A DNA stretch of 64,000 nt. Source: Escherichia coli (lineage in GTDB: Bacteria > Pseudomonadota > Gammaproteobacteria > Enterobacterales > Enterobacteriaceae). Under the pieces are notes generated by a model that saw nothing but the letters and a program-made list of their open reading frames with translations, was not told the DNA's origin and did not search any database. The stretch's first letter is position 1, and every line of letters starts with the position of its first letter. Both the position numbers and the translations under genes were made by a program. This document shows positions 1 to 5,403 of the stretch, in pieces. The stretch is from the NCBI RefSeq assembly GCF_041886205.1, contig NZ_CP169029.1. One strand, written 5' to 3'.

Positions 1-93
1 GAGAGTCGAACGCTGATGTGTGTTTCGCAATACGCAATGCTGGAAGCGATAATTGAATTCTTACGCGAGGAGTGCTGCGTAAATAGCAAAATT

Positions 94-176
94 GCCTGAT
101 GCGCTACGCGCTACAGATTTCATGCCATGCACGGTTTTGTAGGTCGGATAAGACGCGTTAGCGTCGCATCCGACAT
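94..176. repeat. REP/BIME-like palindromic units downstream of arsC
   Basis: gcctgatgcgctacgc... and gtaggtcggataagacgcgttagcgtcgcatccgaca resemble the E. coli REP consensus; coordinates approximate. Confidence 0.55.
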
Positions 177-221
177 AAACAAAGCGCACTTTACCAACTA
201 TGGGCAGTGGATATCGCCGCT

Positions 222-647
222 TTATTTCAACCGCTTACCCGCTTCATCAACCACTTTCTCGCCATCTTCCTTGGAGAATGCGCCTTTTTGCGCATCTGGC
301 AGAATTTCCAGCACCACTTCTGAAGGGCGGCACAGGCGAGTTCCCAGCGGCGTCACCACAATCGGGCGATTAATCAGAATCGGGTGCTGAAGCATAAAGT
401 CGATTAACCGATCGTCAGTAAATTTATCTTCTGCAAGGCCCAGTTCCTCATACGGCTCGACGTTTTTACGCAACAGCGCGCGTACGGAAATCCCCATATC
501 GGCAATGAGTTTGACCAGCTCATCGCGCGTTGGCGGTGTTTCCAGATAATAGATAATGGTCGGTTCTGTACCGCTGTTGCGGATCATCTCCAGCGTATTA
601 CGCGACGTACCGCAGGCCGGGTTGTGATAAATGGTAATGTTGCTCAT
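222..647 (-). CDS. arsC: arsenate reductase (glutaredoxin-dependent)
   Basis: 141-aa ORF; N-terminus MSNITIYHNPACGTSRNTLEMIR with the HNPxCGTS active-site region; last gene of the ars cluster. Confidence 0.93.
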   Translation of the reverse strand: MSNITIYHNPACGTSRNTLEMIRNSGTEPTIIYYLETPPTRDELVKLIADMGISVRALLRKNVEPYEELGLAEDKFTDDRLIDFMLQHPILINRPIVVTPLGTRLCRPSEVVLEILPDAQKGAFSKEDGEKVVDEAGKRLK

Positions 648-659
648 ATCAATATCTCA

Positions 660-1949
660 TTACAAAGTGAAAGAGAGACGTAGCGCCAGCGCAGCCAGCG
701 TCACAAAAAGCACCGGCAGGGTCATGATAATCCCTGTACGGAAGTAATATCCCCAGCTGATAGTCATATTCTTCTGCGAAAGTACGTGCAGCCAGAGTAG
801 CGTAGCCAGGCTACCAATTGGGGTAATTTTCGGTCCCAAATCGCAGCCAATCACGTTGGCATAAACCATCGCTTCTTTGATAACGCCAGATGCCGTGCTG
901 CCATCAATGGACAACGCGCCAACCAGTACCGTCGGCATATTGTTCATAATAGAAGAGAGGAAGGCGGTGAGGAATCCGGTGCCGAGCGTCGCGGCCCACA
1001 GGCCGTTTTCCGCCAGCACGTTGAGTACGCCAGAAAGATATTCCGTTAGTCCGGCATTGCGCAGGCCATAAACCACCAGATACATGCCGAGCGAGAAGAT
1101 GACAATCTGCCAGGGCGCACCGCGCAGGACTTTACCCGTATTAATTGCATGACCGCGTTTAGCGACGGCAAATAATATCAGCGCGCCCACTGCCGCAATG
1201 GCGCTTACCGGAATGCCGAGCGGTTCCAGGACGAAAAATCCCACCAGCAGAAACAGTAAAACAACCCAGCCAGTTTTGAAGGTGGCAGGATCTTTAATCG
1301 CTTCTGCGGGCGATTTCAGCAGCGCCATATCGTAGTTCTGCGGAATATCTTTGCGGAAATAGAGATGCAACATCACCAGCGTGGCAACAATTGCGGCGAT
1401 ATCCACCGGCACCATCACCGATGCGTATTCGCGAAAGCCGAGGCCAAAGAAATCTGCGGAAACGATATTCACCAGGTTGGAGACAATAAGCGGCAGGCTG
1501 GCGGTATCGGCAATGAATCCGGCCGCCATCACGAACGCCAGCGTAGTGCCTTTACTGAACCCTAAAGCCAGCAGCATGGCGATGACAATTGGCGTTAAAA
1601 TCAGCGCCGCGCCATCATTGGCAAACAGAGCTGCAACGGCAGCACCGAGCAGGACAATCCAGGTAAACAGCAAGCGACCGCGTCCATTGCCCCAGCGTGA
1701 GACGTGCAGCGCCGCCCATTCAAAAAAGCCGGACTCATCCAGCAGCAGGCTGATGATAATGACGGCAATAAACGCCGCCGTCGCGTTCCAGACGATATTC
1801 CACACCACCGGAATATCACCCGGATGAACCACGCCCGTAACCAACGCCAGTACCGCGCCGAGCGTTGCACTCCAGCCGATGCCTAAACCTTTCGGCTGCC
1901 AGATAACCAATACGATGGTCAGGACAAAAATAGCGCCTGCCAGTAACAT
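660..1949 (-). CDS. arsB: arsenite/antimonite efflux permease
   Basis: 429-aa polytopic membrane ORF between arsA and arsC; recognised ArsB sequence. Confidence 0.94.
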
Positions 1950-1991
1950 ACACCCTCCTGACAGGGCGACATGGTCGCCCTGTATAAAAAA

Positions 1992-3743
1992 TTAACTTGC
2001 CAGCTTTCTGAGTTTTTCGATGCCCGTAGGTTCTTGTGCGAATAGAGGGACCAGCGCTACACGCTTAGCATGTCGGGCCATCACCGCCTCAATTTGTGGT
2101 CGTTCCTGCGTTGCTCGCTGACACAGTAGCGACGAACGTGTATCCGCAATAGAAAGGCAGTTATTGATTATCCAGCCCCAGGGATGAATCCCTGCGCGTT
2201 CAAGATCGGCCTGCAAATTAGCCGCTTCCAGTACGGGCGTGGTTTCAGGCAGCGTAACCAGCAGCACTTTGGTGCGTTGCGGATCCTGAAGTAGCATCAT
2301 TGGCGTAGTAAAGTGACCTTTTTCGCCCATTTTTTTCGCAATTTCACGGTGATAAGCCCCGGTGGCATCCAGCAATAACAGCGTGTGACCGGTTGGCGCG
2401 GTATCCATCACCACAAAACGTTTACCCGCCTCACGGATCACGCGCGAGAACGCCTGAAATACAGCAATCTCTTCGGTGCAAGGAGAGCGTAAATCCTCTT
2501 CCAGCAGTCGTTTCCCCGCTTCATCGAGATCTTTTCCCTTTGTCTCAAGGACATGCTGGCGATAGCGCTCGGTCTCTTCCTGCGGATTGATCCTGCTGAC
2601 CTGTAGGTTGGTAAGTGTGCCGTTTAGGGTAGTGTTAATGTGGGCAGCAGGATCGGAGGTTGTAAGATGCACATCGAATCCCATATCTGCCAGGCTGACG
2701 GCGATAGCTGCGGCCATTGTGGTTTTCCCCACGCCGCCTTTTCCCATCAGCATGATCAGACCGTGTTCACTGCGGGCAATATCATTCACTAGCTCAGAGA
2801 ATGACATGTTTTCAAAGAATTGCTGGCGCATCTGGTCAGAGAGCGGTGCAGGCTCGAAACGGGTATTAAAAAGACCTTTTAATGCAGGCACGCCAACCAT
2901 GTTCACCGGTTGAAGAAAGAGGGTATCTGCTGGAATGGTCGATAAACCGGCGGGTAAATTTACCAGGGCTTCCTGCTCACGCTGAACTATTGCCATTGCT
3001 AGTGGGTCATTTTGCTGCCCGGACTCAGGCAATACGCCGTTGATCACCAGATAATGATTTTTAAGACCAATCGCTGCCAGTTCTTCATGAGTGCGAGCGA
3101 CTTCCTGCAATGTTGATTTTTGCAGGCGTGCAACCAGCACCAGGCGGGTACGCTCAGGATCGGATAATGCTTCTACCGCATCAGCGTACTGCTCACGCTG
3201 TTTTTCCAGCCCAGCCATCGGGCCAAGACAGGAGGCACCATCGGGATTACTTTCAATAAAACTGCTCCAGGCACCGGGGAGCTGCAGAAGTCGTATGGTA
3301 TGGCCCGTTGGCGCGGTATCAAAAATGATGTGATCAAAGCGGGCCAGCAGAGAGGCATCGGTCAGTAAACCGGTGAACTCATCGAACGCCGCGATCTCCG
3401 TCGTACATGCTCCCGAAAGTTGTTCGCGTATACTATTTACAACCTCCTCAGGGAGAAGTCCTTTGATAGGGTCAACGATTCTGGCCCGATACTGTTCAGC
3501 GGCTTGCTGAGGATCAATTTCCAGCGCGGACAAACCGGGAACCGCTGTCACAGGAGTAATAGCGTTACCAATAGTTTGATTAAATACCTGACCGACATTC
3601 GACGCGGGGTCGGTGCTGACAAGCAGAACCCGTTTTCCCTGTTCCGCCAGATGGATAGCAGTTGCGCAGGAAATTGACGTTTTACCTACACCTCCCTTAC
3701 CGGTAAAAAACAGATAAGGCGGGATATTCTGTAAGAATTTCAT
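1992..3743 (-). CDS. arsA: arsenite-stimulated ATPase ArsA (two homologous halves)
   Basis: ORF-track 591 aa; likely start at internal Met (MKFLQNIPPYLFFTGKGGVGKTS); two P-loops GKGGVGKT present (N- and C-half). Confidence 0.93.
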   Translation of the reverse strand: MKFLQNIPPYLFFTGKGGVGKTSISCATAIHLAEQGKRVLLVSTDPASNVGQVFNQTIGNAITPVTAVPGLSALEIDPQQAAEQYRARIVDPIKGLLPEEVVNSIREQLSGACTTEIAAFDEFTGLLTDASLLARFDHIIFDTAPTGHTIRLLQLPGAWSSFIESNPDGASCLGPMAGLEKQREQYADAVEALSDPERTRLVLVARLQKSTLQEVARTHEELAAIGLKNHYLVINGVLPESGQQNDPLAMAIVQREQEALVNLPAGLSTIPADTLFLQPVNMVGVPALKGLFNTRFEPAPLSDQMRQQFFENMSFSELVNDIARSEHGLIMLMGKGGVGKTTMAAAIAVSLADMGFDVHLTTSDPAAHINTTLNGTLTNLQVSRINPQEETERYRQHVLETKGKDLDEAGKRLLEEDLRSPCTEEIAVFQAFSRVIREAGKRFVVMDTAPTGHTLLLLDATGAYHREIAKKMGEKGHFTTPMMLLQDPQRTKVLLVTLPETTPVLEAANLQADLERAGIHPWGWIINNCLSIADTRSSLLCQRATQERPQIEAVMARHAKRVALVPLFAQEPTGIEKLRKLAS

Positions 3744-3760
3744 ATGTCCCCCTGACCGGC

Positions 3761-4123
3761 TCAACAACAGTCGGTTTTTCCGCCACAGCAGTGTGTTGGT
3801 GCCAGTCCCACCTTCTCCAGCGGGATCCCAAACCAGCGGGCTAGCTCGGCGCGTTTCGGATAACGGCCCGCCATCACGGTTTCGCCTCCCAGTAAGATCA
3901 AGGGCAATCCTTCCGCCCCGGAAGCCTCAAGAAACGCTTTCGCTTTTTCGTTTTGCACGAAACTCATCGGTTGCTGCGCGAGATTGTAACGTTCGACCTG
4001 AACACCGCGGCTTTTCAGCCATTGCACATCTGCGGAAAAATCGACCAGCACCTGATCAACATCAGAACCACAGACGCCGGTACTGCAACACATCGCCGGA
4101 TCAAACACCGTTAACGTCTTCAT
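3761..4123 (-). CDS. arsD: arsenic metallochaperone / secondary repressor ArsD
   Basis: 120-aa ORF; MKTLTVFDPAMCCSTGVCG with the Cys12-Cys13-Cys18 triad and C-terminal CC pairs. Confidence 0.92.
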   Translation of the reverse strand: MKTLTVFDPAMCCSTGVCGSDVDQVLVDFSADVQWLKSRGVQVERYNLAQQPMSFVQNEKAKAFLEASGAEGLPLILLGGETVMAGRYPKRAELARWFGIPLEKVGLAPTHCCGGKTDCC

Positions 4124-4170
4124 CTTCGATACCTCACATTCGGAAAATCATATATATCAAGTCAAATTTT

Positions 4171-4524
4171 TTAACTGCAACTTGCTTTACCGTCAGCAGA
4201 GCAGTTGGCTGCGGCCAGCTTACGGGCGATAGCCTGCACGTCGTCCAGTTGGCTTAATCTTGTTTGCTCAATAATTTTCGCCGCCCATGCTGGAATATGC
4301 GGCGATAAGCGGTAATGAACCCACTTACCCTGCTTGCGATCCAGCAATAGCCCACTTTCACGCAGCAATGCCAGGTGGCGGGAGATCTTGGGCTGCGACT
4401 GGTCGAGAGCAGTACAGAGATCGCAGACACATAACTCTCCCAGCTCGCTGAGCAGTAAAACGATGCCCAGACGGGTCTCATCAGCAAGAATTTTGAACAG
4501 TTGGATGGGTAAGAGAAATGACAT
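4171..4524 (-). CDS. arsR: ArsR/SmtB-family arsenite-responsive repressor
   Basis: 117-aa ORF with ELCVCDL metal-binding motif inside a wHTH; first gene of operon. Confidence 0.93.
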   Translation of the reverse strand: MSFLLPIQLFKILADETRLGIVLLLSELGELCVCDLCTALDQSQPKISRHLALLRESGLLLDRKQGKWVHYRLSPHIPAWAAKIIEQTRLSQLDDVQAIARKLAAANCSADGKASCS

Positions 4525-4534
4525 ATTGCGCTCC

Positions 4535-4610
4535 TGATTGTTGCAGGTAGTGTCTCTCTTCGAAGCGGATAAGTCAAAAACATATATGACTTAACGAATG
4601 TGTAAGCGCA
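4535..4610 (-). promoter_or_regulatory. ars operon promoter/ArsR operator region (approximate)
   Basis: Immediately upstream of arsR; contains aagtcaaaaacatatatgacttaacgaat with imperfect dyad; position inferred, not mapped. Confidence 0.35.
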
Positions 4611-4671
4611 GAAGAAGGTAATAGGTGTGAATTTTGAGTTGGGTATTCATTTGAAAGGAGGTCTGAATCAG

Positions 4672-4762
4672 GACGTAAAAAAACCGACTTTGTGTCGGTT
4701 TTTTACTTCCCAGCCCTGAGTTGGTGGCTCTGGCTGGAGTGAGAGAGCTCTTATCTAACAGT
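4672..4762 (-). ncRNA. agrB: agrB-like small RNA (antisense regulator of dinQ); agrA/agrB naming by position is tentative
   Basis: ~90-bp unit with hairpin aaaaaaaccgactttgtgtcggtttttt and a stretch (ctctggctggagtgagagagctcttatctaaca) repeated in the dinQ 5' region; K-12 carries agrA/agrB here. Confidence 0.5.
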
Positions 4763-4902
4763 TCAATACTATTAGCCAGTGGCTAACATTGCAAGAATTA
4801 GCGATTTCTTCAGCTGGAGAAGGGACAGTTTGCTATACATGTTGGTGAAAGAGGATTTATATACTTTCATCGGGTCGCTGCCGTACCAAGCCTTGTCCGA
4901 AT

Positions 4903-4993
4903 CCGGATGTAAAAAAACCGACTTTGCGTCGGTTTTTTACTTTCCAGCCCTGAGTTGGTGGCTCTGACTGGAGTGAGATAGCCATCATCTAAC
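4903..4993 (-). ncRNA. agrA: agrA-like small RNA (second copy of agr repeat unit)
   Basis: Near-identical second copy of the 4672-4762 unit (hairpin aaaaaaaccgactttgcgtcggtttttt plus ctctgactggagtgagatagcc...). Confidence 0.5.
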
Positions 4994-5057
4994 GCATCAA
5001 TGCTAATACCATACTGAAACTATTGCAAGGACGTGCTGGTTTTATAACCTGCATGTA

Positions 5058-5073
5058 CTGTATGATTATCCAG
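5058..5073 (+). promoter_or_regulatory. LexA box (SOS box) in dinQ promoter
   Basis: ctgtatgattatccag fits CTG-N10-CAG LexA consensus; upstream of dinQ. Confidence 0.55.
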
Positions 5074-5266
5074 TTAGCTCTGAGGCATTTTCACTCTGGC
5101 AATGCGCATAAACGCTTTCAAAGTCCTGGTCAGAAGTACGGGTGGTGCCGTTAACTGATGCTCTGGCCGGAGTGAGAGAGTTCTTATCTAACAATGAGAC
5201 ATGCGCCGTGACAGGCAGTGGATGAGTAAGCGGATGCATTCTCACTCCATCGCATGGAGAAAACGG

Positions 5267-5350
5267 GTGATTGATAAAGCAATCATCGTTCTTGGGGCGT
5301 TAATTGCGCTGCTGGAACTGATCCGCTTTCTGCTTCAGCTTCTGAACTGA
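5267..5350 (+). CDS. dinQ: type I toxin peptide DinQ (27 aa, GTG start)
   Basis: Translation from GTG gives MIDKAIIVLGALIALLELIRFLLQLLN, a single hydrophobic helix matching DinQ; too short for the ORF track. Confidence 0.7.
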   Translation: MIDKAIIVLGALIALLELIRFLLQLLN

Positions 5351-5365
5351 TAGCGGAAACGTAAT

Positions 5366-5397
5366 TAAGGGCTAAGAGCACACTACTCTTAGCCCTT
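5366..5397. terminator. stem-loop between convergent dinQ and gor
   Basis: Inverted repeat gggctaagag...ctcttagccc directly after dinQ stop and before gor stop. Confidence 0.45.
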
Positions 5398-5403
5398 TAA
5401 CAT

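Follow-up and report, generated by a model that had tools for sequence, protein, structure and literature searches.

The ars locus and its five genes

The stretch of DNA analyzed here (the window, 64 kb in length) matches the E. coli wlxctx60 chromosome with 100% identity, in agreement with the view of an earlier note on this DNA that it stems from a strain other than K-12. In the region 222-4524, the ORF listing gave five consecutive open reading frames on the minus strand in the order arsR-arsD-arsA-arsB-arsC (Table 1), and the RefSeq annotation of the identical chromosome (NZ_AP045833.1) lists these five genes as well. The intergenic spacers R-D, D-A, A-B, and B-C have lengths of 47, 17, 42, and 12 nt. 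The 583 residues of ArsA are counted from an ATG; the mechanically called ORF begins at an upstream TTG at position 3767.

Table 1. Features of the ars locus, with positions in the window
Feature	Position	Strand	Description
arsC	222..647	-	glutaredoxin-dependent arsenate reductase, 141 aa
arsB	660..1949	-	arsenite/antimonite efflux membrane protein, 429 aa
Segment without K-12 counterpart	1959..4134		2,176 bp: arsD Shine-Dalgarno, arsD, arsA, arsA-arsB spacer with hairpin
Perfect 10-bp stem-loop in the arsA-arsB spacer	1961..1983	-	immediately upstream of the arsB Shine-Dalgarno GGAGG (1958-1954)
arsA	1992..3743	-	arsenite-stimulated ATPase, two homologous halves, 583 aa
arsD	3761..4123	-	As(III) metallochaperone for ArsA, 120 aa
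Operator-like site O2 (candidate), arsR-arsD spacer	4134..4157	-	ATATATATGATTTTCCGAATGTGA; ends just before the arsD Shine-Dalgarno
arsR	4171..4524	-	As(III)-responsive repressor, 117 aa
Pars promoter (inferred)	4549..4577	-	-35 TTGACT (4577-4572), 17-nt spacer, weak -10 GACACT (4554-4549)
Operator O1, upstream of the ars promoter	4580..4603	-	ACACATTCGTTAAGTCATATATGT in gene orientation

All five genes are full length, and in a profile search each product scored above the curated cut-off of its NCBIfam family, which confirmed the gene content that had been claimed: ArsR reached 219 bits with PRK10141 (cut-off 97), ArsD 132 bits with NF033727 (cut-off 90), ArsA 932.7 bits with TIGR04291 (equivalog cut-off 650; residues 7-570 covered), ArsB 729 bits with NF011980 (cut-off 457; residues 1-427 of 429 covered), and ArsC 306 bits with NF007456 (cut-off 242). 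ArsR is an As(III)-sensing repressor with the ArsR/SmtB winged-helix fold, as known from R773 and K-12, and with the metalloid site ELCVCDLC (Cys32, Cys34, and Cys37) inside the sequence ELGELCVCDLC. ArsD is colinear with the crystal-structure sequence of R773 ArsD (3mwh, aligned residues 1-109) and contains Cys12, Cys13, and Cys18, which bind and transfer As(III), as well as Cys112/113 and Cys119/120. ArsA aligned to R773 ArsA (1f48) without gaps over residues 1-582 and keeps both GKGGVGKT P-loops and both DTAPTGHT signal-transduction motifs at the R773 positions, together with the metalloid-binding Cys113, Cys172, and Cys422 and with His148, His453, and Ser420. The lengths given in the earlier note for ArsD and ArsA were verified, as was the duplicated nature of the ATPase. 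ArsC is colinear with R773 ArsC (1i9d) and has Cys12 at the catalytic position together with the triad of Arg60, Arg94, and Arg107. None of the catalytic or metalloid-binding residues that we checked is missing from the five proteins. Inactivating mutations in arsD or arsA, a possibility that the note had raised, were looked for and are absent: both reading frames are full length, colinear with the R773 structures, and conserved at the key residues. As judged from the sequence, the operon apparently works.

In comparison with a plasmid-type operon, dN/dS was 0.035 for arsD and 0.072 for arsA, which points to strong long-term purifying selection on both genes. Within E. coli, the arsA genes of two carriers differ at 10 nonsynonymous versus 12 synonymous positions, and the resulting dN/dS of 0.27 could reflect a somewhat relaxed constraint.

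The order arsRDABC on one strand, the short spacers, and an ArsR operator-promoter region upstream together constitute the arrangement of an operon, and terminator-like matches occur at chance frequency (6 found versus 6.1 expected). From this arrangement, we infer that the five genes are co-transcribed as one unit. The operon adjoins dinQ and gor and thus occupies the native E. coli gor/dinQ-ars locus. We are highly confident that 222-4524 represents an intact five-gene arsenic/antimony detoxification operon at its native chromosomal locus, i.e., a minority haplotype and not a recent plasmid insertion. As chromosomal arsRDABC operons of E. coli have already been annotated in RefSeq and published, this finding is correct but ordinary.

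Operator O1, a candidate second operator, the predicted promoter, and the hairpin before arsB

The operator O1 was the site picked when motifs were searched de novo in 16 non-redundant sequences upstream of arsR. With a position weight matrix (PWM) built from other loci, it scored 23.6 bits and was the top site in the 64-kb window. The predicted promoter Pars lies directly downstream of O1, at a position that is conserved in related operons; it was read from the sequence and was missing from the listing of a generic promoter scan. Both O1 and the promoter are identical in K-12. Going by the K-12 Pars sequence, we take O1 to be the footprinted ArsR site. There is literature support for this assignment (PMC3918153).

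A second operator-like site, the candidate O2, lies in the arsR-arsD spacer. O1 and O2 are inverted repeats of each other, with 18 of 21 positions complementary, and O2 matches the operator motif: using a PWM made only from the upstream operators of other loci, O2 scored 22.9 bits, and the next best site in the 64 kb, counting both strands, reached 9.3. An equivalent of O2 is present in all 16 non-redundant related operons, where it is always among the two best sites of the locus (leave-one-out PWM). The pair of O1 and O2 is also found in the R773-type locus L010 and in other plasmid operons, and O2 equivalents occur in the arsR-arsB spacer of K-12 (21.3 bits) and in a Salmonella arsRBC plasmid (18.2 bits). 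We tentatively propose, with rather less than even confidence, that ars operons with an ELCVCD-type ArsR carry a second near-consensus ArsR operator directly after arsR and shortly ahead of the next gene's ribosome-binding site, which would be an arsenite-releasable roadblock if it is bound.

Such a spacer element could instead be an RNA structure, a signal for arsD translation, or part of an internal promoter, and not a protein-binding site. O2 is imperfectly palindromic and immediately precedes the Shine-Dalgarno sequence of arsD, and a weak promoter-like match (TTAAAA-16-TATGAT) overlaps it, which would fit these functions. However, the spacer RNAs of three operons folded no better than shuffled sequences (z 0.34, -1.07, and 0.68), and the region has about as many promoter-like matches as expected by chance (6 versus 5.5). 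In addition, the PWM that ranked the element among the top two sites of all loci was trained only on upstream operators that are not transcribed, and in Moellerella and Providencia, the orientation of O2 is flipped with the motif kept. We therefore regard a function of O2 other than protein binding as unlikely.

The observation of O2 as a candidate ArsR operator may be new. In the papers that we consulted, ArsR has been described with a single chromosomal site, and a second site was treated as an artificial addition (PMC6555750). Engineered ArsR operators downstream of arsR are known to act as arsenite-releasable roadblocks that lower background expression (PMC3918153; PMC10310618). In arsenic biosensors with a second ArsR binding site, or ABS (Stocker et al., 2003; Merulla and van der Meer), the operator was placed between arsR and the downstream gene, which is exactly the placement of O2; the second ABS of the biosensors is engineered, whereas the candidate operator O2 is native and conserved.

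The stem-loop in the arsA-arsB spacer is a further conserved element. Its RNA has a predicted folding energy of -21.3 kcal/mol (z -4.55), and none of 200 shuffled sequences folded as well. The hairpin is conserved before arsB in other operons, including plasmid operons, with a compensatory change, and in Moellerella, a hairpin with an unrelated sequence occupies this position. The conservation of the hairpin suggests that it probably limits arsB translation or shapes mRNA processing.

The individual steps of arsenic detoxification have been established for the homologues of plasmid R773 and are transferred here by sequence conservation. ArsR would repress the promoter at O1 and leave the DNA once As(III) or Sb(III) binds to Cys32/34/37. 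ArsC would reduce arsenate to arsenite using glutaredoxin, ArsD would take up As(III) via Cys12/13/18 and pass it to ArsA, and docking of the two-domain ATPase ArsA on ArsB would convert the antiporter into an ATP-driven extrusion pump. If ArsR also binds to O2, it would probably keep transcription from reading through into the pump genes as long as arsenite is absent, and basal transcription could then replenish ArsR while arsDAB stay off.

Comparison with K-12 and origin of the five-gene form

The K-12 arsRBC operon is at the same locus with the same flanks (dinQ and gor). The earlier note had stated that K-12 carries only these three genes, and this holds for MG1655, whose arsR-arsB-arsC locus has no counterpart to 1959-4134 and hence lacks arsD, arsA, and the hairpin before arsB. 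When positions 1-5400 of the window were compared to the MG1655 locus by blastn, two homology blocks were found (30-1958 and 4135-5400), which are 9 bp apart in K-12. At the nucleotide level, arsB, arsC, and the 5' part of arsR share 96-97% identity with K-12 (96-98% for the 5' two thirds of arsR, 97.2% for arsB), and ArsB and ArsC are 99.3% identical in amino acid sequence. ArsR as a whole is only 86.6% identical to K-12 ArsR, with a differing C-terminal third. The 3' third of arsR (4171-4334) is 68-81% identical to K-12 but 80-82% identical to arsR of other arsRDABC operons, and across 4334-4135 the identity to K-12 falls from 96% to 81% and then to 68%. The alignment to K-12 that the note had called for thus confirmed the absence of arsDA, but it did not show a clean indel, as identity drops to 68-81% in the last ~190 nt of arsR and in the spacer. 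With this additional difference at the arsR 3' end, the forms with five and three genes represent two deep haplotypes that differ by more than a clean indel. The five-gene haplotype is rare: a search of 5,426 complete E. coli genomes gave 187 records with chromosomal arsDA at an identity of at least 95% (about 3.4%), and the matching arsR 3' end likewise occurs in exactly 187 records.

Plasmid R773 carries the same five genes in the same order, and the crystal-structure sequences to which ArsA, ArsD, and ArsC align without gaps are from this system, but the operon of R773 is on a plasmid and the operon described here is chromosomal. Unlike R773, it has an ArsR N-terminus and operator half-site details of the E. 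coli chromosomal type. Two plasmid-type operons that were compared gene by gene are 77-87% identical at the nucleotide level, with amino acid identities of 86-87% for ArsA, 91-93% for ArsD, and about 80% for ArsR. The nucleotide identity to every plasmid, island, or other-species operon examined was 77-78% for arsR, 79-80% for arsDA, 83% for arsB, and 84-87% for arsC, and synonymous sites are near saturation in comparison to the mobile versions (dS 0.9-1.7 in all five genes). Because all five genes are only about 77-87% identical to the plasmid versions, we consider the operon to be of an old E. coli lineage rather than a recent plasmid import.

Enterobacterial plasmids very often carry five-gene ars operons (at least 80% of the query was covered by 1,680 plasmid records), and some E. 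coli chromosomes, such as that of strain MJ-T, have a separate island-borne copy beside an integrase, so that the arsD-arsA pair or the whole operon could be a recent acquisition, from a genomic island or a plasmid like R773, that only looks chromosomal. We consider this very improbable. Across the operon, identity does not exceed 79-82% even for the best true matches from plasmids, islands, or other species, and a 98.5% match in the plasmid collection is a 4.9-Mb record that we take to be a misfiled chromosome. Moreover, the operon is exactly at the K-12 ars position with nearly K-12-like arsR 5', arsB, and arsC sequences, there are no mobile-element genes at the operon junctions, and the divergence from mobile versions is uniform across the five genes. 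A different question is which of the two chromosomal forms is ancestral. The three-gene form of K-12 could have come first, with the five-gene form generated when DNA of a diverged arsRDABC donor replaced, by homologous recombination, the segment from the middle of arsR to the start of arsB; alternatively, a deletion removed arsDA from K-12. The position of the haplotype boundary inside arsR is typical of a recombination joint and not of a clean deletion, and at its 3' end, arsR of the five-gene form clusters with other arsRDABC operons. On the other hand, the arsR 5' part, arsB, and arsC are as distant from the mobile operons as arsDA, so that the operon in its entirety has the appearance of a single old lineage, and it is the arsR 3' end of K-12 that is the outlier, with 73-74% identity to everything compared. 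K-12 also retains O2 as well as a remnant, TTTTAT, that resembles the beginning of the spacer between arsA and arsB, which fits an excision of arsD-arsA, and we found no donor for the replaced segment. We consider a replacement somewhat less likely than not.

Within E. coli, chromosomal arsRDABC operons of the same kind have been described in phylogroup D (ST69 complex and ST1836) by Sutterlin et al. (2018; PMC5923176). The chuA-positive carrier strain 550 has an arsDA sequence that is 98.9% identical and an identical ArsD protein. The strain of the window has no chu locus between dctR and yhiD and is, following the logic of the Clermont scheme, chuA-negative and hence probably not a member of phylogroup D. 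If so, the allele is not confined to the published phylogroup D lineage. In one carrier pair (chuA-positive and chuA-negative), the arsD-arsA-arsB block has a dS of 0.01-0.04 versus 0.10 for the flanking gor, and this low divergence suggests that the block was spread by recombination.

Resistance and biological meaning

The earlier note predicted that arsD and arsA confer higher arsenite/antimonite resistance, an expectation that derives only from R773 biochemistry. In work by Dey and Rosen in 1995 and by Lin et al. in 2006, ArsA and ArsD of R773 reportedly raised resistance and fitness at low arsenite. The general claim that arsRDABC gives more resistance has been repeated (PMC9731454). The prediction is mechanistically reasonable, but it was not supported by the one study that we found of natural E. 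coli isolates, in which the sodium arsenite MIC did not differ significantly between carriers of chromosomal arsRDABC and arsRBC (Sutterlin et al., 2018; PMC5923176). Because of this result, the functional gain from arsDA may be small or condition-dependent.

With a little less than even probability, in our view, the intact operon provides no more resistance in practice through arsD and arsA than arsRBC does, in which case the five-gene form would be a near-neutral polymorphism under ordinary conditions. The lack of a significant MIC difference, the rarity of the allele, and the within-species dN/dS of arsA are in line with this. However, the long-term purifying selection on arsD and arsA and the retention of all functional residues speak against it, as do the reported effects of the R773 proteins at low arsenite. 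MIC assays may also be too coarse or saturated to detect such an effect, and the low divergence of the arsD-arsA-arsB block relative to gor suggests its spread.

The five-gene haplotype is usable as a strain marker and is a candidate determinant of arsenic/antimony tolerance in animal and environmental E. coli, although published MICs show no gain over arsRBC. Its presence in chuA-positive and chuA-negative backgrounds makes it a tractable case of an accessory segment that is maintained and moved by recombination inside a core operon. If O2 is real, it would revise the textbook picture of ArsR control by a single operator and would explain the good performance of arsenic biosensors to which a downstream operator was added; if ArsR binds to it, O2 would be the native counterpart of a design that biosensor engineers later built artificially.

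The arsRDABC operon and its surroundings

Five consecutive ORFs on the minus strand lie where the earlier note had placed a complete arsRDABC operon, and each of the five products passed the curated NCBIfam cut-off for the family expected of it, which bears out that claim. The intergenic spacers measure, from arsR to arsC, 47, 17, 42, and 12 nt. The length of arsA is counted from an ATG, the mechanical ORF start being an in-frame TTG eight codons upstream.

Features at the ars locus and elsewhere in the window
Feature	Position	Strand	Detail
ArsR/SmtB-family regulator (part)	1-99	+	98 aa in full; extends beyond the window
Stretch downstream of arsC	~139-175		TGTCGGATGCGACGCTAACGCGTCTTATCCGACCTACA (gene orientation)
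arsC	647-222	-	141 aa; 306 bits (cut-off 242)
arsB	1949-660	-	429 aa; 729 bits (cut-off 457)
arsA	3743-1992	-	583 aa; 933 bits (cut-off 650)
arsD	4123-3761	-	120 aa; 132 bits (cut-off 90)
arsR	4524-4171	-	117 aa; 219 bits (cut-off 97)
Segment missing from K-12	1959-4134		2,176 bp
arsA-arsB spacer hairpin	1961-1983		10-bp stem, 3-nt loop
O2, candidate operator	4134-4157		22.9 bits (PWM)
Predicted weak -10	4554-4549	-	GACACT
Predicted -35	4577-4572	-	TTGACT
O1, operator upstream of arsR	4603-4580	-	ACACATTCGTTAAGTCATATATGT; 23.6 bits (PWM)
Direct repeat, 114 nt	4661-4774, 4895-5008		copies 87% identical
AgrB (Rfam matches)	4675-4758, 4909-4992	-	opposite dinQ
dinQ toxin gene	5267-5350	+
ES036 sRNA (Rfam match)	13770-13810	-	42 bits
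24-mer TTATGTCTGATTTATAAATTATGT, twice	19032-19073		overlapping, 18 nt apart
RyhB sRNA (Rfam match)	63541-63605	+	83 bits

The earlier note had named inactivating mutations in arsD or arsA as the finding that would speak against it. No sign of inactivation was found, and such mutations can be ruled out, as both genes are full-length ORFs whose products align without gaps to their counterparts from plasmid R773, which carries the reference operon, and keep the key residues. ArsA aligned to the R773 crystal-structure sequence over residues 1-582, ArsD over residues 1-109, and ArsC over all 141 residues, in each case gap-free. Using a script, we then checked the residues described in the literature on R773. 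ArsA retains both GKGGVGKT P-loops and both DTAPTGHT motifs as well as Cys113, Cys172, Cys422, His148, His453, and Ser420; ArsD retains Cys12, Cys13, and Cys18 together with the C-terminal cysteine pairs; Cys32, Cys34, and Cys37 of ArsR are present inside ELCVCDLC; and ArsC retains Cys12, Arg60, Arg94, and Arg107. In comparison with a plasmid-type operon, dN/dS was 0.035 for arsD and 0.072 for arsA, indicating strong purifying selection on both genes.

The operator-promoter region upstream of arsR is identical to that of K-12. Inside the operon, consensus scans for promoters and terminators gave matches only at chance-level numbers, and Rfam found no RNA family, the only nearby matches being AgrB-type antisense RNAs between arsR and gor. 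Immediately before the Shine-Dalgarno sequence of arsB, the arsA-arsB spacer contains a perfect hairpin with a folding energy of -21.3 kcal/mol (z -4.55), a stability that no shuffled sequence reached (0 of 200). This hairpin, which K-12 lacks, is kept in other arsRDABC operons with a compensatory change, and in Moellerella a hairpin of unrelated sequence occupies the equivalent position before arsB. As no U-run follows it, the hairpin is not a typical terminator; in R773, a hairpin before arsB has reportedly been tied to low ArsB synthesis and differential mRNA stability.

In work from the Rosen laboratory, the ATP-driven ArsAB pump reportedly outperforms ArsB alone, and ArsD makes ArsA more effective at low arsenite. 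A higher resistance to arsenite and antimonite, as predicted in the earlier note, would thus be a reasonable expectation from R773 biochemistry, and the general claim of greater resistance from arsRDABC has been restated (PMC9731454). However, the only isolate-level data that we found (PMC5923176) give no support to this prediction for the allele.

Several further features were seen around the operon and elsewhere in the window. Convergent with arsC lies the ArsR/SmtB-family regulator gene, and just past it, in divergent orientation, a 333-aa permease (Pfam ArsP_1, PF03773, 179 bits); in L003, the extracted flank of the window's strain, the two genes occupy 118-414 and 521-1522. Together, the two genes may form a second metal(loid) module beside the ars operon. 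K-12 lacks them, its homology beginning at window position 30, and since some arsRBC strains carry the pair, it is not linked to arsDA. The stretch downstream of arsC occurs in K-12 too and resembles a REP element. On the other side of the operon, the arsR-gor intergenic region with its direct repeat corresponds to a known type I toxin-antitoxin locus, dinQ/agrA/agrB. Elsewhere in the window, matches to the sRNAs ES036 and RyhB were detected, and the repeated 24-mer, which points to a short tandem duplication, is a weak match (9.3 bits) to the operator PWM described below.

A candidate second operator between arsR and arsD

An inverted repeat surrounds arsR: positions 4135-4155 in the arsR-arsD spacer pair with 4582-4602 in the operator, 18 of the 21 positions being complementary. 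For comparison, we examined 87 related loci from plasmids, from one island of E. coli, and from a genome collection that was scanned with an ArsD alignment. An ArsR-like gene ends just upstream of arsD in 30 of them, and in 21 of these 30 it is of the ELCVCD type, leaving 16 non-redundant loci (Enterobacterales and two Sutterellaceae) after the removal of near-duplicates. De novo motif discovery in the 16 arsR upstream regions alone yielded an operator of 24 bp (approximately wCAyATwyG-N6-CrAATrTGw) whose distance to the start of arsR is constant.

We then built leave-one-out PWMs from these upstream operators only and searched both strands of every complete locus with them. Without exception, the top two hits in a locus were its upstream operator and a position within the arsR-arsD spacer (16 of 16 loci). 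The spacer sites scored 19-27.6 bits, compared with at most 11.3 bits elsewhere in the loci, and outscored the upstream operator in 11 of the 16. Over the whole 64-kb window, O1 and O2 were the two best matches, the next one reaching 9.3 bits. Equivalents of O2 were also found in the arsR-arsB spacer of K-12 (21.3 bits, at 3459-3482 of L002, the extracted K-12 ars locus) and on a Salmonella arsRBC plasmid (18.2 bits).

We also considered whether O2 could reflect RNA structure and rejected this, as the arsR-arsD spacer folds no better than shuffled sequences. In Moellerella and Providencia, the element is flipped with the motif retained. Together with the PWM matches, these observations suggest that a DNA-binding site is the better explanation of O2.

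When an engineered ArsR operator is put downstream of arsR, it is known to lower background expression as a block to RNA polymerase that arsenite releases (PMC3918153, PMC10310618). By analogy with these constructs, we propose a natural roadblock function for O2: basal transcription would supply ArsR while the candidate roadblock keeps arsDABC off. A second ArsR site has been treated as artificial, with a single chromosomal site being assigned to ArsR (PMC6555750), and in the searchable literature, which does not cover older primary work, we found engineered sites only when looking for a natural second operator. In three loci with an ArsR lacking ELCVCD (L034, L055, and L058), a different motif, TTTCAAyAATwGTTG, lies upstream of arsR and seems to recur in the arsR-arsD spacer. 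On this ground, an operator on each side of arsR may be a general design.

Two haplotypes at the chromosomal ars locus

The chromosome of E. coli wlxctx60 (Asian black bear faeces, Japan) matches window positions 1-5400 with 100% identity, and its RefSeq annotation lists the same five ars genes, flanked by dinQ/gorA on one side and by the ArsR/SmtB-family regulator and the permease on the other. At the equivalent position, K-12 MG1655 has arsR-arsB-arsC, so the earlier note was right that K-12 carries only arsRBC. The homology blocks with K-12 cover window positions 30-1958 and 4135-5400, and as just 9 bp lie between these blocks in K-12, the segment that spans arsD with its ribosome-binding site, arsA, and the spacer between arsA and arsB is missing there, which also confirms the strain as non-K-12.

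A clean arsDA indel can nevertheless be ruled out. Whereas arsB and arsC are both 97.2% identical to K-12 at the nucleotide level and the neighboring gor, compared with K-12 only, 97.7%, arsR reaches only 86.4%. In a profile of 100-nt steps, identity to K-12 is 96-98% at 4335-4634, 81% at 4235-4334, and 68% at 4135-4234, and thus falls within the last third of arsR and the adjacent spacer. Because both diverge, an indel alone does not account for the difference between the two haplotypes. With 68-81% identity to K-12, the 3' third of arsR (4171-4334) is a distinct allele, and in the annotated carriers inspected RefSeq labels this type of ArsR only as "transcriptional regulator", in contrast to the K-12 type, which it calls As(III)-sensing ArsR.

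A recent plasmid origin was rejected as well. Compared gene by gene with two plasmid-type operons, nucleotide identity was 77-78% for arsR, 79-80% for both arsD and arsA, 83% for arsB, and 84-87% for arsC, with dS of 0.9-1.7, near saturation, in each of the five genes. Genuine matches on plasmids, on islands, or in other species reached 79-82% identity at best and were uniformly diverged; arsDA of the closest other-species operons (one genome per species scanned) was no closer than the plasmids, at 79-80%, and the best ArsD outside E. coli among the matches listed, on Enterobacter and Hafnia contigs, had 95% amino acid identity. From these comparisons, we read the five-gene operon as a single coherent lineage that is old and specific to E. 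coli. As for the origin of the difference, the K-12 arsR 3' end is the outlier, with 73-74% identity to everything compared, and K-12 retains both O2 and a few bases, TTTTAT, similar to the beginning of the arsA-arsB spacer; we therefore lean towards a loss of arsDA in the common haplotype. Homologous replacement in place of such a loss also fits, as the haplotype boundary falls inside arsR.

Between two carriers, dS of arsD, arsA, and arsB was 0.012-0.036, compared with 0.10 in the flanking gor, and this lower divergence, seen in two strains only, suggests that recombination within the species has carried the five-gene block from one background to another. The haplotype occurs with and without a chu haem-uptake locus a few kb away: strain 550 (L091), a carrier from the 98.8% identity group, has this locus between dctR and yhiD, whereas the window's strain (L003) does not. 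In the Clermont typing scheme, chuA status informs the phylogroup, and by this logic the chuA-negative strain of the window is probably outside phylogroup D.

Among 5,426 complete E. coli genomes, 187 records contain the arsD-arsA segment at an identity of at least 95%, and about 76 further records, which are plasmid or island copies, match it at roughly 80%. The five-gene-type arsR 3' end was likewise found in 187 records at an identity of at least 95%, equal to the arsDA count, and the remaining arsR-bearing genomes have the K-12-type end (~75% identity). With the flanks counted in, 189 genomes contain 80% or more of the 5.4-kb locus. The five-gene chromosomal operon was already known, as a complete arsRDABC had been reported from the E. 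coli ST69 complex and ST1836 of phylogroup D (Sutterlin et al., 2018; PMC5923176). The feature is therefore an ordinary allele, annotated and published before, and only the O2 operator and the two-haplotype structure go beyond what we found described. If the window's strain is not of phylogroup D, the published distribution of the five-gene form would widen.
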